Source: Candidatus Omnitrophota bacterium (lineage in GTDB: Bacteria; Omnitrophota; Gorgyraeia; Gygaellales; Profunditerraquicolaceae). Taken from it: a DNA stretch of 64,000 bases. Of this stretch, positions 5,033 through 61,144 are shown piece after piece. A program made the position numbers and the translations under genes. Each line of letters opens with the position of its first letter. Position 1 is the first letter of the stretch. Location of the stretch: the NCBI GenBank assembly GCA_022710715.1, contig JAKLGJ010000001.1, forward strand, positions 554,041-618,040, read 5' to 3'. The notes beneath the pieces are model-generated. The model was not told where the DNA came from. It did no database searches and saw only the letters and a list, made by a program, of their open reading frames with translations.

Positions 5033-5109
5033 TGGTGGGCGCAATAGGACTTGAACCTATGACCTCCACAATGTGAATGTGGCGCTCTAACCAACTGAGC
5101 CATGCGCCC
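5033..5109 (-). tRNA. tRNA-Val (anticodon CAC), CCA encoded
   Basis: Reverse complement GGGCGCAUGGCUCAGUUGGUUAGAGCGCCACAUUCACAUUGUGGAGGUCAUAGGUUCAAGUCCUAUUGCGCCCACCA folds as a cloverleaf. Anticodon loop is UUCACAU. Confidence 0.85.
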
Positions 5110-5173
5110 GAATCTATTCAACCTCTATATGCCGAGGGCGAAATCAATCGCCGGACCCGCCATGTTCTTCTCT

Positions 5174-5245
5174 TGGGCCCAGGAGGGTTCGAACCTTCGA
5201 CCAAGAGATTATGAGTCTCCTGCTCTTCCGCTGAGCTATGGGCCC
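5174..5245 (-). tRNA. tRNA-Met (anticodon CAU; elongator Met or Ile2-lysidine type), no CCA encoded
   Basis: Reverse complement GGGCCCAUAGCUCAGCGGAAGAGCAGGAGACUCAUAAUCUCUUGGUCGAAGGUUCGAACCCUCCUGGGCCCA. The 1-72 pair is G-C, so it is not an initiator. One A.C mismatch in the T-stem as I read it. Confidence 0.75.
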
Positions 5246-5448: not shown

Positions 5449-6651
5449 CTAACTTTTATTGAATAATGGATTTTCGGTGATTAAAGGCTGTGAACGGATC
5501 TCGAGAAACTTCTCTGCCAGATCTGCATTGTGCGCTTTCTTTTCTTGTGCCGGATCATCCGGCAGTATGGTTTCTTCTCTCGTCAAAGGTTTACCGAATC
5601 CGGTCGATAGGTAACGGCCGTTGTCGGGGTTATCAGGGTTCAAGGGATCGTGTATATCTATGGTAACTCCTTTATCCCAGCAGCTGGAAGATTTGTACAT
5701 ATTGTATGTGGTTATGTTTCCATAAAGCAGCCGGGTATCTGCTGGTTTCGCAGTTTCGGCCCGATTATCTGCTTGAGACGGCTTGGGTGCTGAAATATCA
5801 GGATAAAAATTATAGGATTGAGCGCTGGCTTCTGTTTTCTGGTCGACGTCGGGCGAGTATGCGGTTGTGCTCTCTGATGCATGTGTCCTGATATACCAGT
5901 TCACTTCTTCCCGGGTGGGAGTATGGTGTATGCTTTCCCAGTATTTCTTTTGAGCGTCAAAAGACTCTTGTATACCATTGCTGGATTGGGCCTGCTGCTG
6001 ATCGGCGGCATATTCCACCAGAGCCTGGGGCTTGCCGTAAGCTCGCCGCTCTTTTCTCAACACCATGTGGGCCCAGTAGGCGTCTTCTGTCATCGTGCCA
6101 TCGGGATTCCTGGCATTTAACAATGCGATGGCTTCGTCCGTAAGTCCTCCGGCAGAAGTCCTGGGAAGCATTTGCCGGGCGCGCTCCATCTTAGCGACCA
6201 CTCCAGCGCTTGTAAGCGTCCCGTCCGGTTTACGGGAAGCTACCAATGCCAGTTGTCCTTGCGAATCCCTTCCGGGGACCTGATCCGGTATGTCGGGAAA
6301 TGGGGATGTTCTCTTGCTTTGCGCAGAAGGCGTTGTTTCGTGCGCGGACTTATCAGATGGCACGATTGGGCTTGTAACCGGATTTCCTTTGCGGTATTCA
6401 GCCAGGATGGCTTCGTCAGTTCTGATCGGGACATTGACCGGGTTGTCCTGATTATATTTGTCCAGCAGTTCATCGTCGGTGTAAACAACAGCTTTTGCGG
6501 GAGGCTCAAATGAACCCGCGCCGGCAGCCATGCACTCGGGATTTATCGGGAATTCGTTCGGGACATCGACTTGAGCCCATGCACTGGCTAAAGCGGCGTT
6601 AAACAACAGGATCAATGCCTGAGATAGAATTTTCATCCTTGCACTGCGCAT
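5449..6651 (-). CDS. secreted hypothetical protein with internal RKPDGTLTSAG / RNPDGTMTED repeats
   Basis: 400 aa. N-terminal signal peptide MKILSQALILLFNAALASAWA. RBS AAGGAGGAG upstream. No recognisable catalytic domain. Monocistronic, with its own promoter, long leader and terminator. Confidence 0.6.
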   Translation of the reverse strand: MRSARMKILSQALILLFNAALASAWAQVDVPNEFPINPECMAAGAGSFEPPAKAVVYTDDELLDKYNQDNPVNVPIRTDEAILAEYRKGNPVTSPIVPSDKSAHETTPSAQSKRTSPFPDIPDQVPGRDSQGQLALVASRKPDGTLTSAGVVAKMERARQMLPRTSAGGLTDEAIALLNARNPDGTMTEDAYWAHMVLRKERRAYGKPQALVEYAADQQQAQSSNGIQESFDAQKKYWESIHHTPTREEVNWYIRTHASESTTAYSPDVDQKTEASAQSYNFYPDISAPKPSQADNRAETAKPADTRLLYGNITTYNMYKSSSCWDKGVTIDIHDPLNPDNPDNGRYLSTGFGKPLTREETILPDDPAQEKKAHNADLAEKFLEIRSQPLITENPLFNKS

Positions 6652-6679
6652 CGACTCCTCCTTGGTTTACGGGAACCGT

Positions 6680-6722
6680 AAAATAAAAAAACCGGATCGC
6701 CTTTTCTTTTTCGGCAACCCGG
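6680..6722 (-). terminator. terminator-like hairpin plus U-tract inside the 5' leader, 28 nt upstream of the 400-aa gene ATG (attenuator candidate)
   Basis: Minus-strand RNA CCGGGUUGCC-GAAAAAGAAAAG-GCGAUCCGG (8/10-bp stem) followed by UUUUUUUAUUUU. It lies downstream of the predicted promoter and directly before the RBS. Confidence 0.4.
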
Positions 6723-6863
6723 ATATAGTTCGGAATTCAAAACTATTTTACCGTGGCTTTCCTGGCCTCACCCCTTCGGTCCGTCTTTATCGATGCCTCT
6801 CCCCCCAAGGTTCGGCTTTATCGATAAGAATCGAGTATTACTGATTTAAATATGTGTGATTTA

Positions 6864-6892
6864 AGTTTACCCTGCGCGGCTGTTGTTTTCAA
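6864..6892 (-). promoter_or_regulatory. predicted sigma70 promoter for the 400-aa secreted-protein gene (TTGAAA-17-TAAACT)
   Basis: Minus strand reads TTGAAAacaacagccgcgcagggTAAACT, 55-80 nt after the stop of the upstream gene. This gives a ~215-nt leader. The leader also contains a 10-bp perfect palindrome TTATCGATAA (6819-6828) and a second CTTTATCGAT copy (6785-6795). Confidence 0.3.
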
Positions 6893-6945
6893 GGGCGTAG
6901 CGGATGGAATCTGTAAACGTTTTCTTGGGCTTGAAGGATGCAAGA

Positions 6946-7287
6946 CTATTGGAAGGAAGGAAGCTCTACTTTGATCTTACCTTGTTCTTCGGGGTTGGAA
7001 ACGACATAGCTGATACTGGAATTCAAATAGGATGACCATTTGTCATTTCGCCCCCTGCGCAGCGGGCCTAACGCGGATTTATCCTGATCGAGACGTTCAT
7101 TCGTTTTGTTGAAAACCATCGAGCGGTAATACACCTGTCCGATAGTCAGGCTGTGCAGGAACGCATTATTCCGGGCGGCAGCCTTAATGTCGTATTCCAG
7201 CAAAGCCGAGACGTTGGTGATAGACATGAAGAATGCCGTGAGCAGCGAAATAATGATGATGAGAGCACTGACTACCAGTCCGAACAT
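6946..7287 (-). CDS. small membrane-anchored protein, last gene of the pseudopilin cluster
   Basis: 113 aa with an N-terminal hydrophobic helix (FGLVVSALIIIISLLTAFF) but no G-F-T-L-I-E prepilin motif. 3-nt gap to the upstream prepilin-like gene. Confidence 0.5.
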   Translation of the reverse strand: MFGLVVSALIIIISLLTAFFMSITNVSALLEYDIKAAARNNAFLHSLTIGQVYYRSMVFNKTNERLDQDKSALGPLRRGRNDKWSSYLNSSISYVVSNPEEQGKIKVELPSFQ

Positions 7288-7290
7288 GGA

Positions 7291-7956
7291 TTACCGCCTT
7301 TTAACGACGTCGATGAACCAGAACCTGACTCCCTGGATCTTTTCCACCGTGGAAGAAACCCCGAACAGATTCTTGCGTTTGCTGTGAGTGGTTACATGCA
7401 CTTTAAAGAAATTCGGGCTCATCGGTTCCTCGGAACTGCCATCGACGGCAGGGGTGAACCGGAAAACGACATCCGCCTGGTATTTTCCTTCGATCAGGAC
7501 TCGTTCGGTGCCGGTATCGACGTTCCGGATCATCAGTGCGCCGCGCAGACCGTCCGGGCATCTCTGGCCTGACGGGCATTTGATGTAATATTCATACCAG
7601 ATATCGTCGCTATTCTCCTCGGGGGTTATGTTGAAGATGTTGCCCTGTCCGCGGAATTTGAAGTTATGCAGCTCTTCCGGTTCGTAACCCGAGAAACTGG
7701 TTTCGTTGTCGATCTCCACCGCGCTGGTGCAACGCAGACTGATGTCCTGCAAGGTGTTGCTGATCTGGGTATGCATGTTAAAACGTTCCATATACAAGCT
7801 TACCTGATGCGCGGTGTGCATGGTCATCCAGTAGATCGCCATGGCGACGGACGGCAGCAGGATCAGCGCGATGAGCATTTCGATCAGACTGAAAGCTTTA
7901 GCCGCTTTTTTACTGCGCGGCCCCGGTTGTGAAAGTCGTTTCTTCTCGTCGATCAT
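7291..7956 (-). CDS. prepilin-type N-terminal cleavage/methylation domain protein (minor pilin / pseudopilin-like)
   Basis: 221 aa. A 21-aa basic leader is followed by AFSLIEMLIALILL, a type IV pilin class III signal with Ala rather than Gly at -1 and Glu at +5. Confidence 0.65.
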   Translation of the reverse strand: MIDEKKRLSQPGPRSKKAAKAFSLIEMLIALILLPSVAMAIYWMTMHTAHQVSLYMERFNMHTQISNTLQDISLRCTSAVEIDNETSFSGYEPEELHNFKFRGQGNIFNITPEENSDDIWYEYYIKCPSGQRCPDGLRGALMIRNVDTGTERVLIEGKYQADVVFRFTPAVDGSSEEPMSPNFFKVHVTTHSKRKNLFGVSSTVEKIQGVRFWFIDVVKRR

Positions 7957-7957
7957 G

Positions 7958-8851
7958 TCAGCGGCTTGCCTCGGTGGCGAAAACGGTCATATCGAGATCC
8001 CGCAGGTAAAAGGTGTTTTTTTCACCGTGCCTGAACCAGCGCAGCTCTATGGTATGCTTCTGTTCCGGCTTGACGTTGGGAATAGTGATCTTCTGGCAGT
8101 TGATGGGCTGCGATTGTATCGGGGCCCATCCGCCGTATTCGGTCAGCCCGTAAGGGACTTCGTCGAACAAAAGCAGCGTATGAATCGCATCCGTGGGAGG
8201 TATGCCCTCCAGCGCTTCCGGATAAACGGAAACGCAATAATACACCTGAATGTCTTTTTCCACCGCGTATTCGACTTCGATCTTGCTGCGGGGAACAACA
8301 TGTTGCCAGCCGGGATGCCGGGGGTACTGGTACTCCGTCATCGGATCATCCGAAGCGGGGTAGTTAGCGACCTTGCAGGCGGCCGAAGGCGGGTACGGAC
8401 AGTGATAACTCTGCCGGCTTAGATGCACTTCAGGATAGGGATACATGGCGGTCAGGCGTAACGCGCGCTGGCCGGGGCTCTGCCCTTCCATGGCAACCCG
8501 GTCGTACCAGGCAGTCACGGTGATATTCTTATAGGGGATCTTGCGAAAATCGGGAGTATTCTTTCCCTGCAGCATCCGGGTCTCTTCGGGTGACACGGAA
8601 ATATTCCAGAAAGTTTTCAACCCGTCGATCCAGGACTGTTCCCCTGTTTCATTGCGCACGTAATCATACCCTCGCGCCAGAGTGCGTTCCATCTGGGTCT
8701 GCGCAACGCTCATGGCCCGGGAATCCAGTTCTTTGTTCTTGAGCATCTGAAAGCCGCCGCTCAAAGATACCACGATGATCCCGGAGATGATCACGGTGAT
8801 CACCACGGTTACCAGGAGTTCCACGTAGGTAAGACCCGTTCTGGTTCGCAT
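7958..8851 (-). CDS. prepilin-type N-terminal cleavage/methylation domain protein (pseudopilin-like, PilW/GspK-sized)
   Basis: 297 aa. MRTRTG|LTYVELLVTVVITVII has Gly at -1, Glu at +5 and a hydrophobic helix. The gene ends 1 nt before the next start. Confidence 0.7.
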   Translation of the reverse strand: MRTRTGLTYVELLVTVVITVIISGIIVVSLSGGFQMLKNKELDSRAMSVAQTQMERTLARGYDYVRNETGEQSWIDGLKTFWNISVSPEETRMLQGKNTPDFRKIPYKNITVTAWYDRVAMEGQSPGQRALRLTAMYPYPEVHLSRQSYHCPYPPSAACKVANYPASDDPMTEYQYPRHPGWQHVVPRSKIEVEYAVEKDIQVYYCVSVYPEALEGIPPTDAIHTLLLFDEVPYGLTEYGGWAPIQSQPINCQKITIPNVKPEQKHTIELRWFRHGEKNTFYLRDLDMTVFATEASR

Positions 8852-8852
8852 A

Positions 8853-9683
8853 TTAGAGTTCTCGGTCCAGCGGCATAAGGGTAATGGTCATCTGCCGGCT
8901 GTTGGCCGGGCTGAAGACCGTCAGCGGCGAATCGTTTTTCCAGTAGATCTCGATAATCAGGCTTGCGGGAAGTTCGCCGTTGTAATCATCGGGCATGATC
9001 AATGCGCTGCCCGTCATTACCGGTTCGCAGGGCGGAGAAGGCGGCGGAGGCGGCGTAGATACATGGGTCCTTTCCTCTCCCGGCGGCATCGAAATCTTGG
9101 CTTCTCCCTTTGGGTTCTTCATATCGGAGTTGACGATACAGCGGGAAATCACCGAATATCCCTCGGGAAAAGCCTGGATCGACGTGCCGTACCAGGCCCC
9201 TTCGCAGAGTTTATTCTCGATCTCCATCGCCGCCGGAGAATTGCCGAATACCTCCATTGTCCAGGTTACGATGACCTTGGCTGTTTTGCGGTATTCTTTA
9301 GGGATAGCAAGCTTATATTTGAATTCTTCCACCGGCACGAAATCCGCTTCCGATTCTTGAGCGGCTTTGCCGGAAAATTTGCTCTTGAGATGGATCGGCG
9401 CAAGGCTCAACCCGTCCGTGGCCGTGCCGTTTTCGACTTTTCCTTCGTGTTTGGCAGCGAGGTATTCCTCGCATTCAGGCTGTGTTCCGGCCTCAAAACT
9501 TTTGAAATGAGGATAACGCGCTTCGTCAAGTTCGATCCGGGATTTACCGGTGATCTCCTTGACCTGCGGGGTAAGATTTGCGGTCATTTGAGCGGTATCC
9601 TTGGCCAGGGCCGTCCCGCTTACGAGCAACCACAACGATAAGAACACACCGACTCCCACTGCGCTTCTGTTCGATTGTTTCAT
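8853..9683 (-). CDS. secreted hypothetical protein (signal peptide; PPPPPSPP linker)
   Basis: 276 aa. Signal peptide MKQSNRSAVGVGVFLSLWLLVSGTALA. No recognisable domain. Tightly linked within the pseudopilin cluster. Confidence 0.55.
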   Translation of the reverse strand: MKQSNRSAVGVGVFLSLWLLVSGTALAKDTAQMTANLTPQVKEITGKSRIELDEARYPHFKSFEAGTQPECEEYLAAKHEGKVENGTATDGLSLAPIHLKSKFSGKAAQESEADFVPVEEFKYKLAIPKEYRKTAKVIVTWTMEVFGNSPAAMEIENKLCEGAWYGTSIQAFPEGYSVISRCIVNSDMKNPKGEAKISMPPGEERTHVSTPPPPPSPPCEPVMTGSALIMPDDYNGELPASLIIEIYWKNDSPLTVFSPANSRQMTITLMPLDREL

Positions 9684-9695
9684 TGTTTCCTCCTT

Positions 9696-11054
9696 TTATT
9701 CCTTGCCGGATGGAGTGACGTCATGCCGCTGGGCACGGTAAATTTTCAATTCGACGCCCTTCAACCATACCGATAATTCGGCTTTCTTCTGGTCATCGTC
9801 GAACATGGGAATGAAATAGCAGAGTTCGACAGTATATGTTTTGAACGGCTCAAGTCCGCCGTTTTCGGGTTTCTCGTCGAAATAAGCCGCAGCTTCGATA
9901 GAGCAGTTGCCCCGGAAGGAACGCTGATGATGCGAGCTGTAAGCCTTGGTCTGGCCGCTGGGATCGATGATCCTGACCATCGAGAAGAATTGCGGCGGGT
10001 CTATGGACGGATTATCTTCGGCATACGTGCTGACCGGGGTGATGGTTTCCACGTTGATCGACCAGATCACGCCGATAGCTTCGTTTTCGCGGGCGCTGAA
10101 CATGAATTTCATGCTTTTACCGGCCGGAAAACCGTCAATATCGTCGATGGGCAGATAGTCTTTATCCGTCAAGCCCAGGATCCACTGGGTGTAGGCTTCT
10201 TCCACAAGCTTGCACTCTTCCGGGCTGGGTGCTGTCCGGCACGGGCTGTTCGCGCTTACCAGTGTATCGCAGGCAGATTCTTTGCAGGGAGGATTGCTGC
10301 CGGTAAACAGCGGTTCCCGGCAGCAGTTATAATCGCGCACGCATTTTTCCCATCCTTTTACGTCGCTGGAGCAGCGCGCGGCGCAGGATTTGAAATCGAC
10401 GGTCGGCACGTATTTGTAGCAGAAGTTCGGAGAGTTGTTGCATTTCGCTCTGTCGGCCTGCTGGGAATCGTCGTAAAATTCGATACTTCTGGAACAACTG
10501 CGGATATCCGGGTTGTTCGGCGTGCAGAACCGCCTGGGGGCGTATCCTCTGCGGTCGCAATACCAGATCGTGGAATCGGAGGGATCGACTTTGCAATCGC
10601 CCTCCGGTTGAAAAGCCGGGCAGCCATCCTCGTAACAGTTGAACTGGCCGCCGCTGCAGGCGGGATTGCAATTATCGTTTACGTCGATAGGCGAACATTC
10701 GCTGGGACGGAAAGGTATCTGTTTGGGCGTGCAGTCAAAAGAGTAACATTTTTTGTGCGGCGTGCCGGCGCTGTCGTATTCCAGGCAGGTGTCTTCCGGA
10801 CACCGGAGGCGCAATTCGTTGCATTTCCTGCAGGCTTTCCTTTTCACGAGTATCTCGGAGCCGGCAAAATCCGAATCCTGCAGCTGTAAATGCAAACCGC
10901 GGGCTACAGCGGAATTGATCGCGAAATCCTTGGGAAGATAATTGATCACGCGTTTGCCGCTATCTTCCGCGGTTCCGGCTAACGGCAAAAAAAAGACCAT
11001 GGCCACAGCAAGGCACATGGTGAAAATAACCGGTTGAGTGCGCAATTGTCCCAT
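9696..11054 (-). CDS. cysteine-rich secreted protein (putative adhesin / filament-tip protein), novel
   Basis: 452 aa. Signal peptide, then a roughly 230-aa region with about 45 Cys in irregular CxC / CxxC / Cx(n)C spacing, then a Cys-poor ~150-aa C-terminal domain. I recognise no catalytic motif. Confidence 0.6.
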   Translation of the reverse strand: MGQLRTQPVIFTMCLAVAMVFFLPLAGTAEDSGKRVINYLPKDFAINSAVARGLHLQLQDSDFAGSEILVKRKACRKCNELRLRCPEDTCLEYDSAGTPHKKCYSFDCTPKQIPFRPSECSPIDVNDNCNPACSGGQFNCYEDGCPAFQPEGDCKVDPSDSTIWYCDRRGYAPRRFCTPNNPDIRSCSRSIEFYDDSQQADRAKCNNSPNFCYKYVPTVDFKSCAARCSSDVKGWEKCVRDYNCCREPLFTGSNPPCKESACDTLVSANSPCRTAPSPEECKLVEEAYTQWILGLTDKDYLPIDDIDGFPAGKSMKFMFSARENEAIGVIWSINVETITPVSTYAEDNPSIDPPQFFSMVRIIDPSGQTKAYSSHHQRSFRGNCSIEAAAYFDEKPENGGLEPFKTYTVELCYFIPMFDDDQKKAELSVWLKGVELKIYRAQRHDVTPSGKE

Positions 11055-11103
11055 ACTGAAAATATAGCATATTTTTCAGTAATTACAACAAAAAGTCGCG
11101 AAA

Positions 11104-11484
11104 TCAATACCCTTTAAGGGTTTCTTTGCGTACGTGATAGTTGATGGTATCGCAGAGATTTTTCCGGTCGCGTTCCTCTATTTCCTGAAATGCCACTCTG
11201 GTTTCATAGATAGAATCCGGAGTGACTTCCTGGCAGGCAAGCACCCTGCCTTTCACAAACACCGGTTGGGCGGTTATGGGAAGACGGATGTGCAAACCGA
11301 AAGCCGTGTCAGGTTCATACGGCCTGCTGGTGGTAAAACGGATCCCGCCCATTCCTATATCCCGGGTCTGGGAAACGTCGGTAATAACGAACTGGGTATT
11401 CTCAACCATTCCGTAGGAAACCAGAAAACGGGCATGGGCGCGGGGAAAGCTGCGTTTATCGGTGTGGGAAGTCTGTTGCTCCAT
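11104..11484 (-). CDS. PilZ-like c-di-GMP receptor domain protein
   Basis: 126 aa. Contains RSFPR (RxxxR) and, about 25 aa later, DIGMGGIRF (a D-x-S/G-x-G-G variant) in the spacing typical of PilZ domains. Confidence 0.55.
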   Translation of the reverse strand: MEQQTSHTDKRSFPRAHARFLVSYGMVENTQFVITDVSQTRDIGMGGIRFTTSRPYEPDTAFGLHIRLPITAQPVFVKGRVLACQEVTPDSIYETRVAFQEIEERDRKNLCDTINYHVRKETLKGY

Positions 11485-11507
11485 TCGGTCCCTCCTTCCG
11501 GGAAAGC

Positions 11508-11990
11508 CTAATTCTGCGAATAATACCTGTTGATGGTTTTGACTATTTCCTTGTTCGTGGCGATAAAAGGCATAACGTTCAGATCGGAAAAATACCGCAA
11601 TTCTTCGAATGCGCGGTGATTGAGAGGATTAGCCGCTGCCACCGTCAGATTCCGGCCGTATACATCGACCGGCATCAGGTGATATTTCCGGCAGAACCAT
11701 TCCGGCACCAGCGCCACAACGTCGGGATTCAGCTGATAATGCTCTAACGGCAGGTACGGAACGCTGTACTGCGCGGTAAACGCCTGGATAATATCTTCTT
11801 CACTGGCCAGTTCAAGGCTCAACAGGATCTCGCCGAAAAAGTTATGGCCGTTCTGCGACAGTTCACCGCTGATCGCCAGGACCTTCTCCAGCTGAACCTC
11901 GTTGAGGATCCCCCGTTCCAGCAGGATCTCGCCCATGCGTTTCGCGGTAAGACGTTTCTTGAGATGGATCGGATGATCGGGTTTAACCAT
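11508..11990 (-). CDS. stand-alone GspE/MshE N-terminal (MshEN-like) domain protein with c-di-GMP-binding motifs
   Basis: 160 aa after moving the start to MVKPDHP... (ATG at 11990, RBS GAGGAG). RMGEILLERGILNEVQLEKVLAISGELSQ fits the MshEN motif R(L/M)GxxLLxxGxLxxxQLxxAL..Q. A second degenerate copy is FFGEILLSLELASEEDIIQAFTAQ. There is no ATPase domain. Confidence 0.65.
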   Translation of the reverse strand: MVKPDHPIHLKKRLTAKRMGEILLERGILNEVQLEKVLAISGELSQNGHNFFGEILLSLELASEEDIIQAFTAQYSVPYLPLEHYQLNPDVVALVPEWFCRKYHLMPVDVYGRNLTVAAANPLNHRAFEELRYFSDLNVMPFIATNKEIVKTINRYYSQN

Positions 11991-12003
11991 GAGTCTCCTC
12001 TCA

Positions 12004-12056
12004 ACAAAAAAACCACGGTCTCTTAAAAACCGGTTACCCGGTTCAAGATTCCGTGG
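12004..12056 (-). terminator. terminator-like hairpin plus U7, 14 nt upstream of the MshEN-like gene ATG (UvrD terminator and/or leader attenuator)
   Basis: Minus-strand RNA CCACGG...CCGGGUAACCGG...CCGUGG followed by UUUUUUUGUUG. It lies between a predicted promoter and the RBS. Confidence 0.4.
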
Positions 12057-12071
12057 CTGTAGGTTGTAAGA

Positions 12072-12100
12072 ACTATAGCATACGAACGCGCACATTTCAA
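12072..12100 (-). promoter_or_regulatory. predicted sigma70 promoter of the pseudopilin/c-di-GMP receptor cluster (TTGAAA-17-TATAGT)
   Basis: Minus strand reads TTGAAAtgtgcgcgttcgtatgcTATAGT, immediately after the UvrD stop. Confidence 0.3.
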
Positions 12101-12118
12101 GCCGGAGAGAAAATTTTT

Positions 12119-14065
12119 TCAGATCACGTCGTAATCGAGCCGGACTTCCTGATCGAGCTTGGAAAGGACCTGGTGGGAATCGAGGAAACGCGAAACTTTG
12201 TTGAACTGGCTTAAGCCCATGCCGGTATTCTCATGATGCACGGATAGAAAAAGCCTGGTTTTCGCCCGGGTGAGCGCCACGTAAAAAAGCCGCTGTTCCT
12301 CTTCTATACTGGAGTCGTCATTCAAAGCAAAGCTGACCGGCAGCACTCCGTCGATCAGTCCGATCAGGAACACGCATTCCCATTCCAGCCCCTTGGCGGA
12401 ATGAATCGTCGACAAGGTCACGGGTTTTTCTTCATCGGGCAGGCTTGCCTGCGCCTGCGCCACTCCCCGGTCCGGAGGCTCCAGGGCGAAGTCGGCCAGG
12501 AAATCGCCGAGCGAGTCGTAACGCTGGGCGATTTGTTTGATCGCCTCGAAATCGTTGATGCGCTGGTTCCAGTCGTCGAATTTGTTCTTGAGTATCGGCA
12601 GATAATAGTCGATCAGCGTTTCCAGCTTGTCCGCGGTCCTGACCTGCGCATCTGAAAGTTTTTCCAGGGTGACGACCAGCCGCGCGATATCGCGGGCGAA
12701 TTTATACTGTCTGGTCTCTTCGGGCAGCACGGAGCTCACCGCCCGGTTCAGATCGCCGGCAGCGTTGATCTTGTCCACGATCTTGCTGGCGGTTTTCGGG
12801 CCGATGCCTTCGATCAACTGCAGCATGCGCGCCCAGGAGAGCTCGTCTTTATAATTGGCGACGATCTTCAAATGCGCCAGAACGTCTTTTACATGAGCGG
12901 TTTCATAGAATTTCATGCCCCCGTACACCTGGAAGGGGATGCTGCGGCGGCTTAATTCCAGTTGTAACGGGATAGACAGGTACGCGGAGCGGAAGAGCAC
13001 CGCCTGATGGGAAAATGCCAGGCCTTCGCTGCGCAGCTGGAGCATCTTGTCCGCGATCCATTCCGCTTCCGAAGAACTGTCCTGAAAAAATGACAACTGG
13101 GGTTTCTCCCCCTCCGTCCCTTTGGCGGAGAAAAGCTCTTTTTTGTACTTTGAGGTCATATTGTTGAGCACGGCATTAGCCACTTCCAGGATCGCCTGGC
13201 TGCTGCGGTAATTAGCCTCCAGCTTGAATACTTTGCATCCGGCGAAACGCTGCGGGAACTCCATGATGTTCTCGTGCGTGGCGCCCCGGAAGCCGTAAAT
13301 GCTCTGCGCGTCGTCACCGACGACCATGCAGTTGCGGAATTTCTGCGCCAGCAGAAAGGTGATATCGGCCTGCAGCCGGTTGGTGTCCTGGTATTCGTCA
13401 ACCATGATGTAACGGAATTTTTCCGACAGCCCCTCGCGGATGTTTTCGTTCCGGGTCAATAACAGCCGCAGGTAGATCAGGAGGTCGTCGTAATCGAAAT
13501 AATTCTTTTCCATCTTGTAGCGCGCGTAGGCCGCCTTGATCTTTTCCATTTCCGGCACATATTCACAAAAATGCGGATATTCCTTCTCCACTACCTGGTC
13601 CAGAGAAAGGCTTTTATTAACCGACATGGAGAGTATCTTGCGCAGGGTGTCTTTGCGCGGGAAACGCTTGCTCTTTTCGTTAAGCCCGAGTTTACCCAGA
13701 CAGAGATGAATGGCGTCTTCGGCGTCCGATTCATCGATGATCATGAAGGAATCGAATCCGATGTGCCGGGAATGCTTCTTGAGCACCTGATAGGCAAACG
13801 AATGGAAGGTCCCTCCTTCCACGTAACTGCAGCGGATGTCGTTGCGCGAAGCCCGGGCGAGCATTTGCTGCGCCGCTTTGCGGGTAAAGGTCAGAAGCAG
13901 TATGGCGTGCGGGGGGATATTCTGCTGGACCATATGCAGCACGCGGTATTCGATCACTCTCGTTTTGCCGGATCCGGCGCCGGCGATAACCAGCACCGGT
14001 CCTTCGATGGTCTGCACTACCTGTAATTGTGACGGGTTAAGTTGTTGCGTTATATCAATGGTCAT
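12119..14065 (-). CDS. ATP-dependent DNA helicase, UvrD/PcrA/Rep (SF1) family
   Basis: 648 aa. Walker A GAGSGKTRV, motif II VDEYQDTN, motif VI VALTRAK. Confidence 0.85.
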   Translation of the reverse strand: MTIDITQQLNPSQLQVVQTIEGPVLVIAGAGSGKTRVIEYRVLHMVQQNIPPHAILLLTFTRKAAQQMLARASRNDIRCSYVEGGTFHSFAYQVLKKHSRHIGFDSFMIIDESDAEDAIHLCLGKLGLNEKSKRFPRKDTLRKILSMSVNKSLSLDQVVEKEYPHFCEYVPEMEKIKAAYARYKMEKNYFDYDDLLIYLRLLLTRNENIREGLSEKFRYIMVDEYQDTNRLQADITFLLAQKFRNCMVVGDDAQSIYGFRGATHENIMEFPQRFAGCKVFKLEANYRSSQAILEVANAVLNNMTSKYKKELFSAKGTEGEKPQLSFFQDSSSEAEWIADKMLQLRSEGLAFSHQAVLFRSAYLSIPLQLELSRRSIPFQVYGGMKFYETAHVKDVLAHLKIVANYKDELSWARMLQLIEGIGPKTASKIVDKINAAGDLNRAVSSVLPEETRQYKFARDIARLVVTLEKLSDAQVRTADKLETLIDYYLPILKNKFDDWNQRINDFEAIKQIAQRYDSLGDFLADFALEPPDRGVAQAQASLPDEEKPVTLSTIHSAKGLEWECVFLIGLIDGVLPVSFALNDDSSIEEEQRLFYVALTRAKTRLFLSVHHENTGMGLSQFNKVSRFLDSHQVLSKLDQEVRLDYDVI

Positions 14066-14499
14066 GGTTTTCCTATGGTTATTTCATCGCCGGACGTCCA
14101 ACCGCTTTCTGCGGCGAAGCCCGCCGGCACTTCCAGAACATACAACCCCGACTGCGAGGGCGTATACACCGGACACTGCGCCTGCGTGCAGGGCGGGACA
14201 TCGGTTTTGATCTCGACAATCCGCAGGTTTGCGTCGATCCAGATCATATCCAGGGAGATGACCGTATTCTTCATCCAGAACGCATGATAGTCCTGGTTTT
14301 CGAATGCGAACAGCATCCCTTTGCCCCGTTCCAGTTTTTTACGGAACATCAAACCCTGGGCGCGGTCGGTAACGCTCGACGCAAGTTCGGCAAGAACACA
14401 GGTGTTTTTACAGCAGACCTCCACTGTTTCCTGCGCGCTGGCAGTCAGGCCGTTCAAGACCATGACTGCGACTACAATGATGAGTTTAATTTTTGACAT
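14062..14499 (-). CDS. DUF192 domain protein (secreted/periplasmic)
   Basis: 145 aa, signal peptide, RAQGLMFR...GMLFAF...FWMKNTVISLDMIWID is characteristic of DUF192 (COG1430). Confidence 0.7.
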   Translation of the reverse strand: MSKIKLIIVVAVMVLNGLTASAQETVEVCCKNTCVLAELASSVTDRAQGLMFRKKLERGKGMLFAFENQDYHAFWMKNTVISLDMIWIDANLRIVEIKTDVPPCTQAQCPVYTPSQSGLYVLEVPAGFAAESGWTSGDEITIGKP

Positions 14500-16162
14500 G
14501 GTGGCCCAGTATACGCACGGATTCGACGATCAGGAAAAAAGCCAGGACCAGCAGCACAATGCCGGTAATGACCATCGGCTCGAAAGTAAAAGTCCCCCGC
14601 AGGAGTACACCCGTCAGCCAGGGTTTGAGCAGCAAAAGCAGCGAGACGATCGCCACCGCCGACATGAAAATCGCCGGCAGCAACGTTACCAGGAATTTCT
14701 TTTTCCCGCGGTAGAGCCAGATGCTCAATCCCAGCAGGGTCATGGCTGCCAGCAACTGGTTGCTCGATCCGAAGACCGTCCAGAAGAGTTTCCAGGCCGG
14801 GATGTTCGCTCCGTCGGGACTGGTCACTTTGCGCATGATGAACAACAGCGGCAAAGCCAGCGTGGCTATGGTGGCTATGGCCGCCCCCGCTCTGCCTTTA
14901 AGGCCGCAGAATTCCTGGAAGATATACCGGCCCAGGCGGGTGGCCACATCGAGGGTATCGAAGACGAAAGTGGCGAATGCCAGCAGCGCGAAATTAAAAG
15001 CGAAATCTTTCGCTATCCCCAGATTGGAAAGAAAAAGCGCGACGCCGTTGGCGAATATGCGATTGGGGTCCTGCAGCGCCTGCGCATCGGCCCGGGAAAG
15101 GATGACCAGAGTGGCCAGAGCGATCAGGGCGACGAAACTTTCCAGCAGCATGCCGCCGTAGCCGACTATCCGAACGTCTTTTTCCCGGGCGATCTGTTTG
15201 GATGTCGTTCCGGATGAAACGATCGAATGGAATCCTGAACAGGCTCCGCAGGCGACGGTGGTAAAGAGTATCGGCAGCAGCGGTAATCCCTGGGGCGTGG
15301 TCCATTGAACAAAAGCCGGATACTGCAGCAGGTACTGCTGGGTGAGTGCGCCGATAACCAGACCGATGAAAGAAACTCCGGCGGTCAGGCTCAAGAAAAA
15401 TCCTCCCAGATAACCGCGCGGCTGCAGAAGCAGCCAGACGGGTATCACCGAAGCGACGAAACAGTAGATCAGCAGCAGGATATCCCAGGAAACGCGGTTG
15501 TCCAGCCCGAAAGCCGGCGGCAGGTGAACTGGAAAATGCGGGCCGAGGAAAATGCAGACCAGCACCAGAGGCATGAAGATCAGCGTGGAGACGACCAGCG
15601 GCAGTTTAAAACGGCGCAGGAATAATCCCATGAGCAAGGCCAGCCCCAGATACATCAGAGACGAAGAAGCCACCTGCGCGCCGTGTTCAGGTTCGATGAA
15701 GGTGCTGGCGGTGATATCGGTGAATGCGGTAACGATATAAACGATCGAGAACCACAGGAACGCCAGAAAGAGCGTGAAGGCTTTCCGGCTCATGTTTTCA
15801 TGGATGATCTCGGCGATGGACTTGCCCTGATGGCGCAGGGAAGCCACCATCGCAGCCATATCGTGTACTCCGCCGATGAAAATGCCGCCCAGGATGATCC
15901 AGAGCGCGGTCGGCAGCCAGCCGAACCAGACGCCGGCCAGAATCGGCCCGACAATCGGTCCGGCAGCGGCAATCGCCGAGAGGTGTTGTCCGAGAAGATA
16001 GAATCTGTTGGTGGGGATGAAATCCTGGTTGTCCCGCAGCCGCACGGCCGGAGTGGCTCTGCGGTTATCCAGCCCGAACAGTTTGCTCAAGTAACGGCCG
16101 TACAGCTTGTAGCCGGCTATGAGTAAAACGATTCCAGAAAGTAGCAGTTGTAAGATAGTCAC
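14486..16162 (-). CDS. cstA: carbon starvation protein A (CstA family peptide transporter)
   Basis: 558 aa polytopic membrane protein alignable with E. coli CstA along its length (TPAVR..D..PT..., AAIAGAGPLVGP, GYGGMLLESFVA). Confidence 0.85.
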   Translation of the reverse strand: MTILQLLLSGIVLLIAGYKLYGRYLSKLFGLDNRRATPAVRLRDNQDFIPTNRFYLLGQHLSAIAAAGPIVGPILAGVWFGWLPTALWIILGGIFIGGVHDMAAMVASLRHQGKSIAEIIHENMSRKAFTLFLAFLWFSIVYIVTAFTDITASTFIEPEHGAQVASSSLMYLGLALLMGLFLRRFKLPLVVSTLIFMPLVLVCIFLGPHFPVHLPPAFGLDNRVSWDILLLIYCFVASVIPVWLLLQPRGYLGGFFLSLTAGVSFIGLVIGALTQQYLLQYPAFVQWTTPQGLPLLPILFTTVACGACSGFHSIVSSGTTSKQIAREKDVRIVGYGGMLLESFVALIALATLVILSRADAQALQDPNRIFANGVALFLSNLGIAKDFAFNFALLAFATFVFDTLDVATRLGRYIFQEFCGLKGRAGAAIATIATLALPLLFIMRKVTSPDGANIPAWKLFWTVFGSSNQLLAAMTLLGLSIWLYRGKKKFLVTLLPAIFMSAVAIVSLLLLLKPWLTGVLLRGTFTFEPMVITGIVLLVLAFFLIVESVRILGHHVKN

Positions 16163-23245: not shown

Positions 23246-23296
23246 AAAAAAAAGACGGTTCTATTTTTCAAAAATAGAACCGTCCCCTTTTTTGTA
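23246..23296. terminator. bidirectional intrinsic terminator (terminates the tandem-repeat protein gene on the minus strand)
   Basis: Perfect 15-bp inverted repeat GACGGTTCTATTTTT-c-AAAAATAGAACCGTC, flanked by an A8 run on one side and CCCCTTTTTT on the other. Confidence 0.65.
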
Positions 23297-23958: not shown

Positions 23959-24226
23959 AAAAGAAAAAACCCTAAGGACACCATTTCCTTAGGGTTGTAC
24001 TCGATGGTATGCCTTTGGTAGCGCAGCCTTCCACAACACATCCGATCGAGCACCTGGCGCAATCAGAATGTGCGCCAGTGCACTGCGGGTGCAGTGGAAC
24101 TGTCACTTTGCTTCCGGGGCGCTTGCGCGTTACCCGGAAGTCCCGCCTGTTGATCTTGCGTATCTTTTCGCGGGACGTCCCCCGATCACTCGGGGTTTGC
24201 CTTTTTCAACGGGTTTCTACACTGAC
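23959..24226 (-). ncRNA. candidate structured 5' leader or small RNA (about 270 nt) ending in an intrinsic terminator 25 nt before the repeat-protein ATG. Its 5' part resembles a c-di-GMP-I (GEMM) aptamer half
   Basis: Predicted promoter TTGAAT-16-TATACT at 24233-24260 (minus strand). RNA begins ...GUUGAAAAAGGCAAACC-CCGA-GUGA-UCGG-GGGACG (compare Vc2 GGCAAACC-AUUC-GAAA-GAGU-GGGACG). It ends in CCCUAAGG-AAAUGGUGU-CCUUAGGG-UUUUUUCUUUU at 23959-23994. Confidence 0.3.
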
Positions 24227-24312
24227 AAAAAAAGTATAGCACATTTGCGCAAAAATTCAAGTTGTGCAATTGGGCTCTTTGTCAACACAGTGCCGGGGGC
24301 GCGGGCAGGGTA

Positions 24313-60463: not shown

Positions 60464-61144
60464 TTATATCTCGACTTTCAGGCCCGGATTCATTGAGGAA
60501 GACACGAAGAGGCTTTCCACGAACTTCCCTTTGACGGTTGCGGGTCTGGCTTCGGTAATCGCATGGATGACCGATGAGGCGTTTTCATAGAGCGCGTCTT
60601 CGCTGAACGACGTCTTGCCCACCGCCAGGTGCATGCCGCCCTGTTTGTCCACGCGGAATTCGACCTTTCCCTTTTTGACATCCTCAATGGCCTTGGCGAT
60701 ATCGTTGGTAACGGTTCCGGTTTTAGGGCTCGGCATCAAACCGCGCGGCCCAAGGACTTTTCCCAGCTTGCTCAAATCTTTCATCATTTCCGGCGTGGCG
60801 ATAACGCAATCGAAATCCAGGAATCCGCCGGCGACTTTATCGATCAATTCATTCGCTCCGACCAGCTCGGCCCCGGACGCCTTGGCGATTTTTTCATGCT
60901 CGCCGCGGCAGAACACGGCAACCCGGATCTTCTTGCCGGTCCCGTGCGGAAGCACGACGGTCCCGCGGACCATCTGCTCGGATTTCTTGGGATCTACATT
61001 CAGTTTGAAATGCAGATCGAACGAAGCGTCAAATTTCGGCTGCTGTAAACCTTTCAAAACCGAAACCGCCTCTTTAAGCGTGTATACTTTTTCCTTATCG
61101 ACGTTCTTTTCCGATGCACTATAGCGCTTGCTTCTGTTTTTCAT
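60464..61144 (-). CDS. rplA: 50S ribosomal protein uL1
   Basis: 226 aa. Confidence 0.95.
   Translation of the reverse strand: MKNRSKRYSASEKNVDKEKVYTLKEAVSVLKGLQQPKFDASFDLHFKLNVDPKKSEQMVRGTVVLPHGTGKKIRVAVFCRGEHEKIAKASGAELVGANELIDKVAGGFLDFDCVIATPEMMKDLSKLGKVLGPRGLMPSPKTGTVTNDIAKAIEDVKKGKVEFRVDKQGGMHLAVGKTSFSEDALYENASSVIHAITEARPATVKGKFVESLFVSSSMNPGLKVEI

Follow-up and report, generated by a model that had tools for sequence, protein, structure and literature searches.

The described systems nearest to the leader considered here are (i) the GEMM-I riboswitch Vc2 of Vibrio cholerae, (ii) the c-di-GMP-I-GGC family (Rfam RF03167, clan CL00126), (iii) the c-AMP-GMP (GEMM-Ib) riboswitches of Geobacter, and (iv) leaders with tandem aptamers, such as those for glycine and the tandem c-di-GMP-I type. 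Vc2 is built on a three-helix junction with the core words AAAGCC and GGGUU(R)CCG and is associated with motility, pilus, and secreted-protein genes. Its ligand contacts are G20, A47, and C92 in the numbering of the Vc2 structure; these positions are G, A, and C in c-di-GMP-I and G, G, and C in the RF03167 consensus. In GEMM-I RNAs, a GNRA tetraloop on P2 is thought to dock into the distal P3 module. We know of no experiment that establishes the ligand of the GGC-type subgroup, including its members with a C21-G46 pair and A47. The GEMM-Ib riboswitches use the same scaffold, in which small changes to the core re-tune cyclic-dinucleotide specificity; they carry A at position 20, where the leader keeps G. 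The GGC variant was reportedly defined by Weinberg et al. in PNAS in 2017.

The leader belongs to a metagenome-assembled genome (MAG) of Candidatus Omnitrophota that is found in several digester-type metagenomes, with contigs in samples related to JGI 3300025715, JGI 3300009838, and SRR4244739. The stretch of this genome that was analyzed, 64,000 nucleotides in length, is referred to as the window. The leader lies on the minus strand throughout, between a 113-aa gene of a pseudopilin cluster (7287-6946) and a 400-aa ORF (6651-5449), and runs from a promoter-like site to the ATG of the latter (Table 1). The original prediction placed a promoter of the form TTGAAA-17-TAAACT about 215 nt upstream of this ATG. 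The site is present, with 213 nt between its -10 element and the start codon, and similar TTGAA(A/T) ... TA.A.T sites occur in two other leaders of the window. However, a consensus scan over 2.7 kb returns three sites of 9/12 quality versus 2.6 expected from shuffles, so the promoter-like match alone is not above chance.

The same prediction described a conditional terminator just 5′ of the ribosome binding site, in the manner of a riboswitch or attenuator, and this core reading is supported. The hairpin has a stem of ten pairs, including two G-U pairs, formed by CCGGGUUGCC (6722-6713) and GGCGAUCCGG (6701-6692) around the loop GAAAAAGAAAA (6712-6702), with a ΔG of −17.0 kcal/mol in our own hairpin scan. 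U7AU4 (6691-6680) follows directly and ends 28 nt from the ATG, the distance originally given. The hairpin is present in the minimum-free-energy fold of the full leader and has the composition of a Rho-independent terminator, a G+C-rich stem-loop followed by a U-tract. Its 11-nt loop is above the typical size, and a stock terminator scan missed it because that scan permits loops of only 3-8 nt. A promoter between the hairpin and the ribosome binding site, which would have spoken against conditional termination, is absent. The interval from the U-tract to the ribosome binding site is too short to hold one, and expression of the 400-aa gene consequently needs read-through. The 400-aa protein has an N-terminus (MRSARMKILSQALILLFNAALASAWAQ) with the look of a signal peptide, as judged by eye; it has no Pfam family, and its only homologue among 5.8 billion clusters is itself.

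Attenuation through a leader peptide, that is, through a short translated ORF overlapping alternative hairpins, does not fit the layout. The minus-strand ORF list contains no leader-peptide ORF 3′ of the promoter-like site. The sole minus-strand ORF in the leader (6943-6818) has a TTG start, begins 5′ of that site, and lacks a ribosome binding site.

Table 1. Features of the leader and of the gene that follows it; positions are those of the window.
Feature	Positions	Strand	Description	Basis
Promoter-like site	6864..6892	-	TTGAAA 6892-6887, 17-nt spacer, TAAACT 6869-6864	consensus match 9/12
GEMM-I-like aptamer region	6704..6829	-	P1, J1/2, P2, J2/3, P3, J3/1 in usual order	RF03167, R1, core words common to at least 120 members
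Repeat unit 1	6795..6825	-	P1 5′ CG 6823-6822; J1/2 AUAAAG (g6816 = G20 equivalent); P2 5′ CC-GAA-CCUU 6815-6807	
Repeat unit 2	6765..6794	-	diverged tandem copy, AUCGAUAAAG-ACGGACC...	direct repeat and R1
J2/3 and P3 5′ strand	6751..6760	-	J2/3 AAA (a6760 = A47 equivalent), then AGCC-A-CGG	RF03167 and R1 alignments
Distal P3 hairpin	6725..6746	-	AUAGUU-UUGAAUUCCG-AACUAU, in place of family GGGUCC...GGGAUAG	folds and A2 comparison
Switching sequence	6712..6722	-	CCGGGUUGCCG, also terminator 5′ arm	RF03167 and R1 alignments
Intrinsic terminator	6680..6722	-	10-bp stem, 11-nt A-rich loop, U7AU4	ΔG and full-leader fold
Ribosome binding site and start codon	6649..6663	-	AAGGAGGAG 6663-6655; ATG 6651-6649	sequence
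Regulated gene	5449..6651	-	400-aa orphan protein, signal-peptide-like N-terminus	ORF; own terminator 5374-5355

No known riboswitch class had been recognized in the leader. At the Rfam gathering score this holds: a scan of the window does not report the leader, and only RNase P and tRNAs reach gathering. Below that score, however, c-di-GMP-I-GGC (RF03167) aligns to 6825-6709 with 24.4 bits (E=0.0016 for a 501-nt stretch; gathering score 59 bits), covering the whole model (positions 1-80 of 80) and placing 37 inserted nucleotides in the loop of P2. This match is visible only in a local scan at an E-value threshold, as filtering becomes more stringent for long input, and a whole-window scan at an E-value threshold did not pick up the leader for that reason. 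With this end-to-end alignment and the core words that it shares with the family, the leader is a diverged relative of GEMM-I/c-di-GMP-I-GGC. A separate sub-gathering Rfam hit, to Plastid-ycf2 (5035-5109 and 5173-5245, plus strand, and in the loci L005-L010), is an artefact of tRNA-like structure, lying exactly antisense to tRNA genes.

A search pattern drawn from the leader core, AAAGHCNNACC N{4,34} GGNNNGDAAAGCCNC N{15,45} GGGTTNCCG, retrieves at least 120 metagenome loci with at least 112 distinct aptamer sequences. Its H and D codes shut out the canonical G21-C46 pair, and its first gap (4-34 nt) excludes the leader itself, in which that gap is 41 nt. RF03167 scores above gathering in all 20 family loci tested (61-76 bits). 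The sequences are strikingly uniform, reading ccGAUAAAG-CC-AAA-CCacgaG.AAucguGG-GAC-GG-AAA-GCC-A-CGGGUCC...GGGAUAGCCGGGUUGCCGAAG, and represent an environmental subgroup of RF03167 (L024-L143); instead of the G21-C46 pair and G47 of the RF03167 consensus, this subgroup carries the flipped pair C21-G46 together with A47. Members lie 5′ of GspH/FimT-like pilins, response regulators of the CheY type, and secreted proteins. They are also found 5′ of small Cys-rich proteins (C.FYRDS...G.G.GYCD.DG...CDGD..FCEKPD) and small ELMQWIEQFGRWNVQEF proteins, and two loci (L115 and L073) hold three copies each. The closest named host of a pilin gene from the subgroup is a Thermodesulfobacteriota MAG, and the subgroup hosts are related to the Geobacter hosts of GEMM-Ib. 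A looser pattern run on viral contigs gave 12 loci, ten of them near-identical and none GEMM-I-like.

The GEMM-I structure was imposed on the family alignment and then checked by pair counts. On alignment A2 (118 family sequences) this topology pairs 95.3% of cells, versus 23-49% when the partners are slid, and upper P2 and the P1 extension show changes on both sides of their pairs. Left to itself, RNAalifold did not return the GEMM-I topology for this family but joined CGG to CCG over the junction. Under R1, a covariance model of the family, the leader reaches 25.8 bits (E of about 8e-5 over the window) with positions 1-83 of 83 aligned; the best unrelated match in 128 kb reaches 12.5 bits. 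True members score 66-105 bits under R1, with no intermediate scores in 380 kb of family loci. R1 is partly circular, being built from sequences retrieved with a leader-derived pattern; the RF03167 match and the positions that the pattern does not force are independent of this circularity.

The leader keeps the junction core of the family (CGAUAAAG-CC, GG-AAA-GCC-A-CGG, and CCGGGUUGCCGAA), with P1, P2, and P3 in order and matched end to end by the model. Segment 6751-6760 is identical to the invariant GGAAAGCCACGG of the family, and repeat unit 1 departs from the consensus CGAUAAAGCCAAACC by a single mismatch. Lower P3 (AGCC-A-CGG/CCGGGUU) retains its bulged A and is followed by J3/1 and P1 as GCCG, all equal to the invariant columns. 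The switching sequence comprises the P3 3′ strand (6722-6716), J3/1 GC (c6714 = C92 equivalent), and the P1 3′ strand CG (6713-6712). The equivalents of the ligand contacts, g6816 (or g6785 in unit 2), a6760, and c6714, are G, A, and C, in agreement with the environmental subgroup. Among A2 positions unforced by the pattern, the leader equals the consensus at C5, G6, A7, C13, A16, G38, A45 (bulged), G47, and G48 and further at C82, C83, G89, A93, and A94. With the environmental subgroup it also shares the longer form of the first core word (CGAUAAAG-CC.AACC), the flipped C21-G46 pair, a terminator made from the aptamer 3′ strand, and the company of pilin or pseudopilin and secreted-protein genes.

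The losses lie outside this core. The P2 internal loop is GAA/CCA, compared to AAA/G(A/G)C in RF03167 and an invariant AAA/GAC in the environmental subgroup, and three A2 columns of this loop (15, 34, and 36) that are invariant in the 118 sequences and unforced by the pattern are changed. The near-invariant GNRA tetraloop on P2 is absent, P2 being capped by 37 inserted nucleotides in the pairing with unit 1 and by a loop of 10 nt in the pairing with unit 2, and the conserved distal P3 module has been replaced. Unlike Vc2, the leader has no tetraloop-receptor docking, a flipped pair next to the ligand pocket, and a score below the family threshold. It likewise differs from the environmental subgroup in its low RF03167 score, P2 loop, missing GNRA loop, new distal P3, 31-nt duplication, and host, as the one nameable subgroup host is a thermodesulfobacterium (Thermodesulfobacteriota) and the leader host an omnitrophotan (Omnitrophota). 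Taken with what is retained, the leader is very probably homologous to the GEMM-I/c-di-GMP-I-GGC family, and it is best described as a real regulatory leader and a diverged variant of a known riboswitch family, not as a new class.

A perfect palindrome with a second half-site 31 nt away had also been noted, and both elements are there: the palindrome TTATCGATAA at 6827-6818 and, 31 nt apart, two copies of ATCGATAAAG (CTTTATCGAT on the plus strand) at 6825-6816 and 6794-6785. The direct repeat extends to 24 nt with 79% identity at the same spacing. Tandem Repeats Finder lists no rows for the 31-nt duplication, as two diverged copies score too low. ATCGATAAAG is present twice because 31 nt of the aptamer 5′ part (P1-5′, J1/2, and P2-5′) are tandemly duplicated. 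A third exact copy, at 60835, is inside the gene for ribosomal protein L1 and is irrelevant here. RF03167 selects unit 1 as the 5′ half, while R1 selects unit 2 (alignment start 6796); unit 1 is nearer the consensus (AAAGCCGAACC versus AAAGCCAAACC) and pairs better with the single P2 3′ strand, which is the 3′ end of unit 2, GAGG-CCA-GG (6769-6761). The self-complementarity of AUCGAU allows one copy to pair with the other as UUAUCGAU/AUCGAUAA, and the minimum-free-energy fold contains this hairpin, which sequesters both P1-5′/J1-2 copies. The leader resembles tandem aptamers in containing some aptamer sequence more than once; in contrast to them, only the 5′ third is repeated rather than a complete aptamer, and the copies compete for one 3′ half and can pair together.

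The family employs two types of expression platform: (i) a separate terminator containing CCGUGG, the complement of the P3 strand CCACGG, and (ii) direct overlap, in which the aptamer 3′ strand serves as terminator 5′ arm, as in L140, L081, L115, and L112. The L140 terminator, for example, reads AGCCGGGUUGCC-GAAACUUAA-GGUAACCCGGCU-U7. The leader platform is of the direct-overlap type, with CCGGGUUGCC acting as both the P3-3′/J3-1/P1-3′ strand and the terminator 5′ arm. As long as the terminator 3′ arm has yet to be made, the most stable predicted fold of the growing transcript includes P3, and nearest-neighbour energies of the terminator and P3 states are nearly equal (−43.7 and −41.3 kcal/mol, respectively), which makes a good toggle. 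The full aptamer fold reaches −25.7 kcal/mol if it uses unit 1 and −30.9 kcal/mol if it uses unit 2, 13-18 kcal/mol above the terminator state; they are less stable because the hairpin between the units must open.

A separate inverted repeat, ACGGUAAAAUA (6744-6754) and UAUUUUACGGU (6675-6685), is complementary at 10 of 11 positions and could pair the P3 5′ strand with sequence overlapping and just past the U-tract. It recalls the CCGUGG anti-P3 of the family, but is A/U-rich and may be due to chance.

As a whole, the locus is best explained, at somewhat better than even confidence, by a leader that derives from a GEMM-I-type cyclic-dinucleotide riboswitch of the RF03167 subgroup and works as an ON switch, the hairpin being its direct-overlap platform. 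Transcription would start near 6857, judging from the promoter-like site, or would read in from the pseudopilin genes. In the proposed junction, P1 would pair c6823/g6822 with g6712/c6713, P2 would pair 6815-6807 with 6769-6761, and P3 would pair 6758-6751 with 6722-6716. A ligand bound in the junction would contact g6816, a6760, and c6714, and P3 and P1 would then hold CCGGGUUGCCG, blocking the terminator and letting polymerase read into the 400-aa secreted-protein gene. When ligand is absent, the same strand would pair with GGCGAUCCGG, and transcription would stop in the U-tract. The overlap of the terminator with the aptamer 3′ strand predicts this ON polarity. Among possible ligands, c-di-GMP or another cyclic dinucleotide related to it is the most likely. 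PilZ and MshEN are c-di-GMP receptor domains, and a ligand of this kind, c-di-GMP or a close relative, would suit both the PilZ and MshEN-domain neighbours and the family's control of pilin genes. The energetic penalty of the aptamer fold and the lost P2 loop and tetraloop make ligand sensing uncertain, and the chances that the leader responds to a ligand today appear evenly balanced. Sensing may have been weakened or lost through the duplication and through replacement of the P2 loop, the GNRA loop, and distal P3.

Upstream of the leader, the gene for UvrD is followed by those for one MshEN-domain protein, one PilZ protein, two secreted orphans, and three pseudopilin-like proteins. The pseudopilin assignment, made originally from sequence, stands: a 221-aa upstream protein has a weak N_methyl match and an NCBI name of prepilin-type protein, and among 5.8 billion clusters it finds only itself. 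A block at about 5449-16162, carrying genes for CstA-like, UvrD, MshEN, PilZ, secreted orphan, and pseudopilin proteins and for the 400-aa orphan, is located between rpoD and two tRNA genes. Six Omnitrophota-like MAGs (55-62% identity on the CdsZ-like protein) keep the order tRNA-tRNA-CdsZ-RNase P and lack this leader-bearing block of about 11 kb; in two loci (L007 and L009), rpoD lies directly 5′ of the tRNAs. From this gene order, the block looks like a species-specific insertion. The leader itself is 100% identical in five copies, namely the window and four of the 11 contigs with the gene.

Other elements in the window recall parts of the leader. A second leader of about 290 nt (23959-24250, minus strand) has the same layout, with a TTGAAT-16-TATACT site and a terminator (CCCUAAGGA..UCCUUAGGG+U6, 23994-23959) just 5′ of the ribosome binding site of a secreted repeat/orphan protein (ATG 23933). 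Its aptamer-like part (24164-24212) has GEMM-I-like P1-5′/J1-2, a perfect P2, an AAA/GAC loop, and a GUGA tetraloop but no recognizable J2/3 or P3, and keeps exactly what the first leader lost; it scores 25.9 bits with RF03167 (24210-24153) and 29.4 bits with R1. At 12003-12056 (minus strand), the hairpin CCACGG..AACCGG-GUAA-CCGGUU..CCGUGG with U7 (ΔG −24.4 kcal/mol) adjoins the ribosome binding site of the MshEN-domain gene and starts about 10 nt after a promoter-like TTGAAA-17-TATAGT. Its words CCACGG and CCGUGG equal the P3 strand and anti-P3 of the family, which could be a remnant or coincidence. A perfect bidirectional terminator at 23246-23293, GACGGUUCUAUUUUU-GAAAAAUAGAACCGUC with T-runs on both strands, lies 3′ of the secreted repeat-protein gene that follows the second leader.

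The alternative that survives best, less probable than a working switch but deserving serious weight, is a decayed riboswitch of the same origin whose aptamer no longer binds ligand. The hairpin would then be a constitutive, somewhat leaky terminator: the pseudopilin transcript would end there, and read-through into the 400-aa gene would stay low and constant. Such decay would account for the loss of the invariant P2 internal loop, GNRA loop, and distal P3, the insertion of a 31-nt duplication into P2, and a competing hairpin that puts the aptamer fold at a disadvantage of 13-18 kcal/mol relative to the terminator state. It also agrees with a score 40-80 bits under every true member, with no intermediates in the 380 kb of family loci, with the setting in a species-specific island of orphan genes, and with the second, P3-less leader, which suggests that family fragments persist in this genome. 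On the other hand, the leader retains all junction-core positions as well as the overlap of P3 with the terminator, and little energy separates the P3 and terminator states. What has been lost belongs to the peripheral docking module only, for which as few as two replacement events could suffice. GEMM-I RNAs of type 2 occur naturally without a tetraloop/receptor, which also counts against decay. Finally, the strong ribosome binding site, intact ORF, and lack of another promoter indicate that read-through matters.

A further reading, and an improbable one, is a reduced GEMM-I variant that senses a cyclic dinucleotide without the tetraloop-receptor and the conserved P2 loop, with the two diverged 5′ halves, able also to pair together, competing for the single 3′ half in a three-state switch. 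If this were true, its threshold or ligand preference could differ from that of the parent family, and the leader would be the first described Omnitrophota member of the GEMM-I family.

It is very unlikely that TTATCGATAA and the half-site are DNA operators for a dimeric transcription factor that acts without regard to RNA structure, either on the promoter or as a block to elongation. The perfect 10-bp palindrome and the 31-bp spacing of the repeat, three helical turns, are what such sites might offer; however, an independent operator-like role of the palindromic sites is not supported, as the repeated word is the conserved P1-5′/J1-2 segment CGAUAAAG(CC) found in 118 of 118 aligned riboswitches, and its second copy is explained by a tandem duplication that reaches far past the palindrome (24 nt). 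Moreover, the sites do not cover the promoter, being located 37-70 nt 3′ of its -10 element, and within the window the exact word recurs only in the L1 ribosomal protein gene.

Slightly less likely again is an ordinary terminator of the pseudopilin operon with a chance resemblance to GEMM-I. The hairpin is the sole terminator between the pseudopilin stop codon at 6946 and the next gene, and the arrangement of terminator followed by ribosome binding site recurs at the MshEN-domain gene about 10 nt after a promoter-like site, without a long leader. Yet the hairpin stands 225 nt beyond the upstream stop codon and is preceded by three family-specific sequence blocks in the correct order, a pattern from which gave only true riboswitches (20 of 20 loci tested), and it takes its arm from the aptamer 3′ strand in the way that true members of the family do. 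Termination of pseudopilin transcripts may nevertheless be a second role of the same hairpin. Least credible of all is the new riboswitch or attenuator class originally suggested: although the leader scores below gathering for every Rfam family, the conserved words, helices, and platform are all explained by a known family, and no leader-peptide ORF follows the promoter-like site.

The leader illustrates that a riboswitch-derived region can be identified about 35 bits under the curated Rfam threshold by means of its junction core and expression platform. It has also brought to light a very abundant environmental subgroup (C21-G46, A47, at least 120 loci) that controls GspH/FimT-like pilins. 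If the GEMM-I-derived leader is functional, it would tie second-messenger sensing to an island of pilus-like and secreted-protein genes with PilZ and MshEN in an uncultivated omnitrophotan, and would define the dispensable share of the GEMM-I periphery. If it is a relic, it would represent a clean case of riboswitch decay through internal duplication.
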